From a virus (Duplodnaviria; Heunggongvirae; Uroviricota; Caudoviricetes), in the IMG/VR virus record IMGVR_UViG_2880378312_000006: a DNA stretch of 64,000 nt, one strand, 5' to 3'. This document shows, in pieces, positions 6,001 through 9,000 of this stretch (within the stretch, counting starts at the first letter, position 1; each line of letters opens with the position of its first letter). The position numbers were made by a program.

Positions 6001-9000
6001 AGAAACCATTGGTGAAAGGGCTCTATTCATGTTTCCTCCGGTTTTATAACTCAGGCGCGGCGGCATTTTTGCGCCGCAATCCATCTCGCTATGAGATCTT
6101 CCATTGATTCTTTTTTCTGCTTTAACTCGCTGATTATCTGGCGTTGCTCATCCTCAGGGAAGGCTGAAAAAATCTGCAATAATTCCAGTTGATTAGACGT
6201 TAACCCTGCATGTGGTGGAGAACCCCCCGGTTGTTCTGCGTATTCCGCATCCAGATACCCTTCCGGCATCCCGTATGTTTGCTCTATTCTTCTGGCAGCC
6301 TTTTCTCCAAACGAGGCTCTCCCACTCATTAGTTGAGATAGGTAGCTCTTCTCTTTGGGTGGCAGAGTTTTATCTTTAAACCACTCCTTGAGACGTAAAC
6401 GGCGAATTTCTTTTTTTTGCATGTGGTAATTATCTTTAGTAATCACTAAACAAGCAAATACTTGACTTAATGGTTTATTAAACACTAAACTCGCAAAAAA
6501 ACACTAAACCGAGGAAGGTATGACATTAAAAGAGTTTATTAAATCATTAAGGGTTGGTGATGCTAAGAAATTCGCGGCCAGACTTGGTGTATCGCCATCT
6601 TACTTATCGCAAATGGCGTCTGGACGAACAGCTATATCTCCAACCCGCGCCCTTATGATCGAATCTGCGACGGAAGGCCAAGTAAGTAGGGCGGAGCTAC
6701 GACCCCATGATTGGGAGCTTATTTGGCCTGAGTATGCGAGCGGCATTCGTTTGGGGCAAACACATGTAGTTCATGCTGAAGGTGATTGTAGTGCATGCTT
6801 ATCTGATGGAGTTGATTCATGAAAATCAAGCATGAACACATCCGCATGGCGATGAATGTCTGGGCGCATCCGGACGGCGAAAAAGTACCGGCTGCGAAAA
6901 TTACCAAAGCGTATTTCGAGCTGGGAATGACGTTCCCGGAACTGTATGACGACAGCCATCCGGAAGCCCTGGCCCGTAATACCCAGAAAATTTTCCGTTG
7001 GCTGGATAAAGACACCCCTGATGCTGTTGAAAAAATGCAGGCTCTGTTACCGGCGATCGAAAAGGCGATGCCGCCTTTGCTGGTGGCCCGTATGCGCAGC
7101 CACAGTTCTGAATATTACCGTGAGATCGTCGAACGGAGGGATCGGCTGGTGAAGGATGTCGATGATTTTGTTGCGTCAGCGGTTGTTTTGTATGACCAGA
7201 TGAATCGCGGCGGCCCGGCAGGGAATGCTGTGGTGATGCACTAAAAGCACGGTGTTCGGGGGTTTTATGAGCAGCAAGCTTCATGGTCTTGTCTGGGAAG
7301 GGTGCGCCTTCACCGGCATGATCTTATCCAGGGTGGCGGTTATGGCCCGTCTTGCAGACTACAGCAATGACGAGGGCGTGTCATGGCCTGCCATTGAAAC
7401 TATCCGGCGTCAGATCGGTGCAAGAAGTGAATCCACAGTGAAATCGGCTATTGCAGAACTGGCGAAAGAGGGCTGGCTGACGAAGGAAGAGCGTAAGGTC
7501 GGTGGGCGTAATGTAAGCAATATCTATCGGCTTAATGTGGAAAAACTCGAAGCAGCTGCTGCGGCGGCGCGTGAGTCATATAAACCGAAAAGAAAAATTA
7601 GCCCGGCAAAAAATGACCCGTTAACAGTTGACCCGTCAAATATTGCCCCCTCAACGGTTGACCCGTCAAATTTTGATGGATCAACTGTTGATAACAAACT
7701 GCCGATTAGGGGGGCGATGATTGACCCCAATCCGTCAGTATTAAAACCTGATCCGTCAGATAAAAGATCTTCTTGTCCGGACGCTTCGCAACCGGACCCG
7801 CAGACGGCTGAACAGAATTTTTTAACCCGACACCCTGACGCGGTTGTGTTCAGTGCGAAAAAACGCCAGTGGGGAAGTCAGGAAGATTTGGTGTGCGCAC
7901 AGTGGATCTGGGGACGAATCGTGAGTCTTTACGAGCAGGCGGCCAGCGATGATGGCGAGATCACGAGACCGAAAGAACCCAACTGGACTGCATGGGCCAA
8001 TGACGTGCGGACAATGCGGATGCTGGATGGCAGAACTCACAGACAAATTTGTGAAATGTTTGGGCGTCTCCAGCGGGATTCGTTCTGGGTAAAAAACATC
8101 ATGAGTCCGGCAAAACTCCGGGAAAAATGGGATGAACTGGTTATCCGCCTGGGGCGTTCGCCCGCGCAGCGTTGCGTGAATCACATTTCTGAACCGGACA
8201 CTGAAATACCGCCGGGATTCAGGGGGTGACGTGTCATGAAAAACATTGCGGCAGTTGGGGTTCTTGAACGTATTCGCAGACTTGCACCACAGGGGGCGGT
8301 TCCACCGTACCGGACGGTGGAGGAGTGGCGGGAATGGCAACTTGCTGAAGGACGAAAACGCAGCGAGGAGATTAACCGCCTGAATCATCAGGTGCGGGTT
8401 GAAAAAATCCTGAACCGTGCGGGCATCCAGCCGCTTCACAGGAAGTGCTCATTCGGGAACTACCGGGTGCAGAACGACGGTCAGCGCCATGCTCTGAGCC
8501 AGGCGAAATCCATTGCCGATGAATTGATGACCGGATGTACAAACTTCGTGTTCAGCGGTAAACCTGGTACCGGTAAAAATCACCTGGCAGCAGCGATTGG
8601 CAATCGGCTGATGGCGAAGGGGAGAAGCGTGATTATCGTCACCGTGTCCGATGTCATGAGCGTGTTGCATGACGGCTACGACAACGGCCAGTCCGGGGAA
8701 AAATTTTTACAGGAGCTTTGTGGAGTTGACCTTCTGGTCCTTGATGAAATTGGCATGCAGCGGGATACGCGCAACGAGCAGGTCACGCTGAACCAGATAG
8801 TCGACCGCAGAACGGCTTCGATGTGTAGTGTCGGAATGCTGACGAACCTGAATCACGCAGCGATGAGCACACTCCTCGGAGATCGGGTGATGGACCGTAT
8901 GACCATGAATGGTGGTCGTTGGGTGAATTTTAACTGGGAGAGCTGGCGGTCAAACGTTGGACGTCAGGGTATGTGAGAATTTTTGACGAGGTAAATTTTC

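Follow-up and report, generated by a model that had tools for sequence, protein, structure and literature searches.

Candidate replication-origin iterons within the initiator gene of the cryptic lambdoid prophage CP-933P/Sp12

In phage lambda the replication origin sits inside the initiator gene itself: four 18-bp iterons with hyphenated dyad symmetry, each bound by one dimer of the O protein, lie ahead of a 39-bp high-AT region where unwinding takes place, and the iteron segment encodes a flexible linker between the domains of O (PMC6022878, PMC7466680). The locus described here raises the question of whether repeats in the O-like gene of another lambdoid prophage play the same part. It lies in a 64-kb stretch of viral DNA (IMG/VR record IMGVR_UViG_2880378312_000006; hereafter the window), which matches, with 100% identity, a lambdoid prophage of Escherichia coli O157:H7. 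Its genes, and an earlier description in the literature, identify this prophage as the cryptic CP-933P, called Sp12 in strain Sakai (PMC8630535). An earlier note, written from the sequence alone, had read the repeats as origin iterons inside the initiator gene, as in lambda. Our computational analysis, in which lambda was run through the identical procedure as a control, supports that reading. Homology of the gene's C-terminal domain to that of O, the lambda-like position of the repeats, constraint acting on the DNA, covariation with the N-terminal domain, a positionally conserved flank of low stability and precedents in other phages together make it likely that the repeats are replication-origin iterons of the CP-933P/Sp12 lineage, embedded in the linker-coding part of the initiator gene.

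The repeat array and the gene that holds it

The gene in question (7267-8229, plus strand) encodes a protein of 320 amino acids that has been annotated only as a 'helix-turn-helix domain-containing protein'. Its start, ATG at 7267, is the one assigned by the Prokaryotic Genome Annotation Pipeline in the 100%-identical FRIK944 record; an in-frame GTG lies upstream at 7252. Read from that GTG, the 325-residue open reading frame (ORF) gave a full-length match, over residues 6-325, to phrog_391 'replication initiation O-like' (1.7e-114). The kinship with lambda O resides in the C-terminal domain (7723-8166, plus strand), where BLASTP aligned residues 153-300 with residues 145-277 of O, the P-interacting domain (34% identity over 148 amino acids, E=2e-25). 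The N-terminal domain (7267-7560, plus strand), presumed to bind the iterons, is of another kind: it matched the winged-helix family HTH_36 (Pfam PF13730; 2.2e-6, 27.8 bits against a cut-off of 25 bits), with a weak match to DnaD_N, and in the alignment of relatives its type tracks the iteron type. The window protein has no match to PF04492 (Phage_rep_O), whereas lambda O matches that family at 5.7e-36; the two N-terminal domains thus belong to different Pfam families, and BLASTP found no similarity between them. No Rep_3 or related Pfam match was obtained at E<0.01. The protein ends in a tail (8164-8226, plus strand; ...SEPDTEIPPGFRG) that matches the extreme C-terminus of host DnaT (PDB 2ru8, 6aep and 9zbt; NCBIfam DnaT). 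This tail gave the only match in a sequence search of the PDB, which returned nothing for the N- or C-terminal domain, and a single-sequence structure prediction of the initiator was unusable (mean pLDDT 37.6, pTM 0.22).

Between the HTH_36 domain and the lambda-O-like C-terminal domain, at residues 116-140, lies the array (7613-7684): five 12-bp units of TTGA-CCCG-TCAA type, each with dyad symmetry, repeated with a period of 15 bp. Its core is what the earlier note had described. There are two exact copies of GTTGACCCGTCAAAT, at 7627-7641 and 7657-7671, 30 bp apart from start to start and without another copy in the 64-kb window; each is itself an inverted repeat, TTGAC-CC-GTCAA, with perfect 5-bp arms. 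Both lie in frame within the O-like ORF and encode the repeated TVDPSN-type peptides that had been claimed (LTVDPSN and STVDPSN). In order, the units read ATGACCCGTTAA (7613-7624), TTGACCCGTCAA (7628-7639), TTGCCCCCTCAA (7643-7654), TTGACCCGTCAA again (7658-7669) and, in inverted orientation, TTGATGGATCAA (7673-7684); a decayed sixth position follows at 7688-7699. Only two of the five are perfect. Sites with at most two mismatches to TTGACCCGTCAA number seven in 64 kb, and five of them fall within the 72 bp of the array at exact 15-bp intervals, against a background rate of 0.005 per 171 bp. Tandem Repeats Finder reported a period of 15/30 across 7602-7691, and no comparable repeat cluster was found elsewhere in the window. 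The period equals exactly five codons, giving the in-frame peptide NDPLT-VDPSN-IAPST-VDPSN-FDGST. An 11-bp palindrome, TCAA-N3-TTGA, had also been considered as the true unit; it was dropped, as relatives of the window's own type (group A, below) conserve the 12-mer TTGA-CCC(C/G)-TCAA and vary in the 3-nt spacer.

The earlier note had counted about four degenerate copies besides the two perfect units. Those within 7613-7684 stand; those at about 7720-7760 (ATTGACCCC, AATCCGTCAG and GATCCGTCAG) do not, belonging instead to a separate block that is conserved whatever the iteron type of the relatives. This right-hand block (7729-7772) comprises AATCCGTCAG (7729-7738), GATCCGTCAG (7750-7759), GATC sites at 7750 and 7766 and an A+T-rich stretch of low stability, and is a candidate unwinding element at about 7736-7772. 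The gene's two least stable 30-mers flank the array, one at 7739-7768 and the other at 7572-7601; the latter, the least stable of all, belongs to an A-rich left flank (7572-7612; 66% A+T, nearest-neighbour duplex stability z=2.7 within the gene). The right-hand feature recurs in relatives: in 62 of 77, no 30-mer of the gene is less stable than one that lies within ±30 bp of GATCCGTCAG. Between array and block, a row-by-row comparison with group-A relatives identified the degenerate remnant of an isolated 19-bp palindrome (7710-7728; GGGGGCGATGATTGACCCC in the window), which is intact in Erwinia, Mixta and Edwardsiella relatives as GGGGTCAA-TGG-TTGACCCC.

Constraint on the DNA and exchange with the N-terminal domain

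A repeat that keeps the reading frame might be retained for its peptide alone. The array is in frame with a five-codon period, its segment is rich in Pro, Ser and Asp, and unit number ranges from 3 to about 10 among relatives, all of which would suit a repetitive TVDPSN-type linker produced by slippage, the DNA having no function in cis. We therefore held the 30-residue peptide fixed and drew synonymous codons from the prophage's own usage (20,000 resamples). Seven short dyads were observed compared with 1.25±1.06 after resampling, and none of the 20,000 resamples reached seven. Identity at a lag of 15 nt was 45/75 rather than 32.8±3.0, and at third codon positions it was 16/25 rather than 7.0±2.3 (P=2.5e-4). 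Fixing the peptide thus fails to reproduce either the dyad symmetry or the third-position periodicity.

Relatives gave the same answer. In 80 non-identical relatives from many enterobacterial genera, drawn from species-representative genomes and phage records, synonymous sites are frozen in the repeats and scrambled in the conserved domain. The first Ser of the repeat is TCA in 173 of 181 cases and the second TCT in 122 of 135; Lys is always AAA (138/138), Glu always GAA (20/20) and Asn always AAT (23/23). In the DPS motifs further downstream, Ser is likewise TCA in 205 of 211 cases, although TCA makes up 14% of Ser codons elsewhere in these 80 genes, and residues that are invariant in the N-terminal domain use scrambled codons (entropy of about 2.2 bits for an invariant Ser). 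Within units the first codon position varies non-synonymously (GTT/ATT/TTT) while the T at the third position is kept. The closest subgroup (Erwinia, Mixta, Morganella and Edwardsiella) carries one 12-mer in both orientations within a single reading frame, so that different peptides result: TTGACCCCTCAA encodes DPS or DPP, and its reverse complement TTGAGGGGTCAA encodes EGS or EGL. One Edwardsiella gene has about nine units in the pattern ++-++-++-. Units preserved as reverse complements fit a site for a symmetric dimer rather than a peptide repeat. Taken together, codon resampling, the frozen codons and the use of both orientations leave next to no doubt, at the level of sequence, that the array is constrained as DNA in cis and not merely as peptide; that the linker peptide explains it is correspondingly very improbable.

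The alternating inverted half-sites also invite a reading as a hairpin in RNA or single-stranded DNA (ssDNA), for instance an mRNA structure or a primosome-assembly signal, and 7606-7700 does fold better than shuffled sequences (z=-7.0 as RNA, z=-4.4 as ssDNA). A similar excess is seen, however, for the experimentally defined iterons of lambda (z=-6.7), and it vanishes in relative L016, in which every unit has one and the same orientation (z=+0.2). The folds of other relatives are non-homologous, and no Rfam family matched anywhere in the initiator gene with E up to 1. Promoter and terminator signals were also sought, and none turned up between 7200 and 8300. We therefore rejected the hairpin as an independent function, and consider it highly unlikely to account for the array: the lambda and L016 controls mark folding as a by-product of arrays of dyad sites.

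If the units are binding sites, their sequence should be read alongside the domain presumed to bind them, and in the relatives the two change together. Group A, to which the window belongs, has the N-terminus MSSKLHGLVW and a helix of the form x-S-x-x-TV(K/S)xAI, and eight of nine such genes carry TTGA-CCC(C/G)-TCAA units with a 3-nt spacer. Group B, which includes phages SfIV, SfII and phiP27, has the helix G-x-STVRTAI; 69 of its 71 genes contain TCA(A/G)A(A/T)TCTGA units, which are separated by a 4-nt spacer and again follow a 15-bp period. Over all genes together, 476 units fell in the linker segment and one elsewhere. N-terminal domains that are distant or unrelated (L002, Min27, S135/ZF40, Rac YdaU and lambda) are each accompanied by different repeats at the equivalent position. 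Those of Min27 are of the form GGGGCAG...CTGCCCC, and those of S135 and ZF40 of CCCCCTGTGC type. An E. coli STEC005 prophage (L002, 2344-2455) has four to five TCCATCAGGTCAAAATG repeats spaced by about 23 bp, with an A+T-rich stretch after them. From this comparison it is very likely that the cognate N-terminal domain would bind the array units.

Two side observations concern the same pairing. The sole group-A N-terminal domain with B-like units (TCAAAATTTGA) is that of Klebsiella phage Kp4866-6 (L005, 1831-1905), and its recognition helix, NTVRSAI, is intermediate, which may point to a specificity-setting residue. The STEC005 prophage gene shares only the lambda-O-like C-terminal domain and the DnaT-like tail with the window, its N-terminal domain being different, and no phage-encoded loader gene was found downstream of it.

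Alignment with the STEC005 gene places the start of the shared C-terminal module at a junction sequence, TCTTCTTGTCCGGACGCTTCGCAACCGGAC (7768-7797, plus strand). Mosaic breakpoints cluster just before it, at about 7730-7762: partial matches begin at query nt 511 (7762) in E. coli genomes and at nt 479 (7730) in phages. Because the breakpoints come straight after the repeats, DNA-binding domain and array are exchanged together, as a single cassette.

Sites bound by the initiator need not be an origin. They could serve as regulator sites, acting in autoregulation, as a transcription roadblock or in copy control, with the true origin elsewhere. Arrays with dyad symmetry are also typical of operators, the A+T-rich flank is modest, and no DnaA-box cluster was found; a lone DnaA-box-like 9-mer, TTTTCCACA (7536-7544, minus strand, about 70 bp left of the array), matches the consensus at 8/9 and is probably due to chance. 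Yet the position is that of the mapped iterons of lambda, directly 5' of a homologous C-terminal domain, and every lineage keeps an array here together with a conserved flank of low stability. The rest of the 64-kb window holds no such cluster, and the operators of CP-933P that have been footprinted map to the interval between paaR2 and ydaS, upstream of the O-like gene and not within it (PMC8630535). Given the C-terminal homology and the position, a role as operator only is unparsimonious, and we regard it as improbable.

Possible origin function in a cryptic prophage

By analogy with the lambda origin (ori-lambda), initiation at these iterons might proceed as follows. Rightward transcription from the immunity region would supply the O-type initiator, whose N-terminal winged-helix domain would bind as dimers to the array (7613-7684), with its five 12-bp units at 15-bp spacing. 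The complex of protein and DNA so formed would destabilise the A+T-rich stretch just to its right (about 7736-7772). Host DnaB, together with the phage DnaC-like loader, would then be brought in by the lambda-O-like C-terminal domain and the DnaT-like tail.

A natural test of such a module may exist. PLSDB contains a circular E. coli record of 15,977 bp, pZ1322PEC0161-2 (L094, NZ_CP148542.1; strain Z1322PEC0161), which is collinear with 6813-19074 of the window. Its content is limited to cI-like, cro and cII-like genes, the O gene described here with intact iterons, and DnaC-like, nin-like, Q and lysis genes; recognised replicon or mobility genes were not found in it. The sequence across its closing junction is contiguous in none of 20,395 E. 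coli records. The record could possibly be a natural mini-replicon like lambda-dv, or else an assembly artefact.

Several points weigh against the origin reading. The assembly of this circle has homopolymer indel errors and the circle cannot be verified, so we give it little weight as support. The joint change of unit and domain between groups A and B reflects few independent evolutionary events. In the window the left arm of the 19-bp palindrome has decayed although it is conserved in relatives, and one GATC site that is present in relative L003 and in the circular record has decayed as well. The putative unwinding stretch is about 65% A+T (z=2.4; 94th percentile of 30-mers in the window), compared with 78% (z=3.3) in lambda. 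The literature searched contained no direct report of binding or replication for this module or its close relatives, and mitomycin C treatment of O157 Sakai led to no circularisation, replication or packaging of Sp12 (PMC2669165).

This last result bears on the most serious caveat, that of decay. The repeats could be genuine iterons of the lineage whose origin no longer fires in this cryptic prophage, a relic. Besides the failure of Sp12 to circularise or replicate, its integrase is defective (PMC2669165); imperfect units outnumber perfect ones, palindrome and GATC have suffered the losses noted above, and a neighbouring gene of the DUF1627 family is frameshifted. Against this, the initiator and DnaC-like ORFs are both intact and were judged functional by Asadulghani et al. 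(PMC2669165). Matches covering at least 80% of the initiator gene occur in 1511 of 5426 complete E. coli genomes, 411 records being at least 99% identical. Unit degeneracy like that of the window is also found in relatives from viable phages. The mitomycin test, moreover, needs SOS derepression and excision, neither of which is expected for this prophage (PMC8630535); as this element is unable to excise and lacks a classic SOS-cleavable CI as its repressor, the outcome says little about the origin. We consider a dead relic possible, though doubtful; whether the origin still fires in this cryptic prophage is, in our judgement, an evenly balanced question.

A further proposal goes beyond origin identity. 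The HTH_36 family might use a distinct architecture, in which TTGA/TCAA half-sites are packed into a lattice, alternating in orientation every 7-8 bp at an exact five-codon period; units would change in number and orientation without loss of frame, and the strength of the cis sites and the length of the linker would co-evolve. The module would also still fire in 'cryptic' prophages, giving lambda-dv-like circles such as the 16-kb pZ1322PEC0161-2. We offer this combination as speculation, and think it rather unlikely to hold as a whole.

The identification of these repeats as likely iterons assigns a candidate origin, along with its cognate initiator, to a module found in many E. coli genomes, and makes it testable whether 'cryptic' O157 prophages can still replicate in situ. 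The answer matters for prophage-driven amplification of adjacent genes and for recombination among prophages. The locus also offers a clear comparative example of an origin and a DNA-binding domain swapped as one cassette onto a shared lambda-O-type C-terminal domain.

The surrounding genes are those of a lambdoid early region. The prophage adjoins ynfA/speG and carries dicB, ydfC, relB/parE and hokD. Upstream of the initiator lie the repressor analogue PaaR2, a 144-residue regulator (6051-6485, minus strand), the Cro analogue YdaS (6520-6822) and the CII analogue YdaT (6819-7244); the gene after ydaT has been named 'o' (PMC8630535). A RelB-like antitoxin (5839-6084, minus strand) and a toxin of ParE/RelE type (5559-5933, minus strand) are encoded next to PaaR2, and the three genes (5559-6485, minus strand) correspond to the paaR2-paaA2-parE2 module published as part of the CP-933P immunity region (PMC8630535). 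Downstream, the partner of the initiator is a DnaC-like helicase loader (8236-8976, plus strand; NCBIfam PRK12377, 9e-151; DnaC, 2e-91; Pfam IstB_IS21; phrog_50). The DUF1627 gene (9002-9771), 3' of the loader gene, is frameshifted according to the identical FRIK944 record and appears as two overlapping ORFs in the window. A weak Rfam match to the speF leader within it (9152-9257, plus strand; 19.2 bits against a gathering score of 37, E=0.068) is most likely due to chance.

The tail of the initiator is worth noting beside its loader. Irrespective of the type of C-terminal domain, the type of tail in O-type initiators tracks the loader gene downstream (loci L004, L013-L019, L070, L075 and L093). 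All 10 loci of 10 with lambda-like tails (W...E/D..L) have a lambda-P homologue next downstream, a partner seen with such tails only. Where the tail ends in ...IPxGFRG, exactly as host DnaT does, the gene that comes next is DnaC-like or there is no phage loader at all. This pattern suggests that the GFRG tail is a DnaC-docking peptide, and hints at kinship between phage initiator-loader pairs of this kind and the host dnaT-dnaC operon.

Comparison with known origins

The type of element described here, and the way of inferring it, are already well established, and the general picture of lambdoid replication is unchanged. Searches of the literature for the iteron sequences and for the origins of SfII, SfIV and SfV returned no prior description, and the 'Eru' papers on non-lambdoid replication modules of Shiga toxin (Stx) phages do not cover this module or discuss origins.

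The closest parallel in layout is ori-lambda. In both, several dyad-symmetric repeats occupy a segment that codes for the linker (residues 117-145 of 299 in lambda, 116-140 of 320 here), the C-terminal domains are homologous, and the gene comes after cro- and cII-like genes in the early right operon. To the right of the repeats lies an easily melted stretch in lambda and a putative counterpart here, less rich in A+T. The N-terminal domain, in contrast, is HTH_36 here and PF04492 in lambda. The array here consists of 12-bp units in mixed orientation with a strict in-frame period of 15 bp, whereas lambda has four 18-bp units spaced by 20-24 bp. The partner here is a DnaC-like ATPase rather than lambda P, and the initiator carries a DnaT-like tail.

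Lambda O, P22 gp18 and the gp18 of phage L are distantly related origin-binding proteins, each with distinct iterons inside its own gene (PMC8022706). The gene 18 origins of P22 and phage L resemble the present case in that the initiator's own iterons lie in its own coding region, and that of phage L, inferred from repeats alone (six imprecise 11-bp repeats; PMC8022706), rests on a similar inference. They differ in repeat sequence and in their partner, which is the DnaB-type helicase gp12 and not a DnaC-like loader. The origins of the Stx phages 933W and P27, with six lambda-type iterons, also vary in iteron number while keeping frame, and the linker lengthens, by 13 extra residues in their case (PMC7466680); they have true lambda-type O proteins and iterons, however, unlike the different DNA-binding domain and unit found here. 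With the Rep initiators of iteron plasmids (RepA/pi, Rep_3) the likeness is only one of logic, in that iterons are paired with a winged-helix initiator.

The group-B initiators of SfIV, SfII and phiP27 share the HTH_36 family of N-terminal domain, the in-frame 15-bp period, the position of the array and the downstream GATCCGTCAG with its A+T-rich block, and several of them come from viable temperate phages. What sets them apart is the unit, TCA(A/G)A(A/T)TCTGA with a variable 4-nt spacer, and a different recognition helix; their C-terminal domains and loaders vary. Finally, the ydaU-ydaV region of the Rac prophage, which has been reported to possess an active origin, oriJ (PMC3945230), shows the same order of repressor, ydaS, ydaT, initiator and DnaC-like loader, a DnaT-like tail, and a loader that is 79% identical. 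The N-terminal domain of YdaU is nevertheless DUF1376, and its internal repeats are unrelated to those described here. These AACAGATGTTCAAA-like repeats (L004, about 2500-2590; gene nt 354-465), two of which lie 33 bp apart (gene nt 387 and 420), occupy the equivalent position in ydaU and are candidates for the iterons of the historically defined oriJ.

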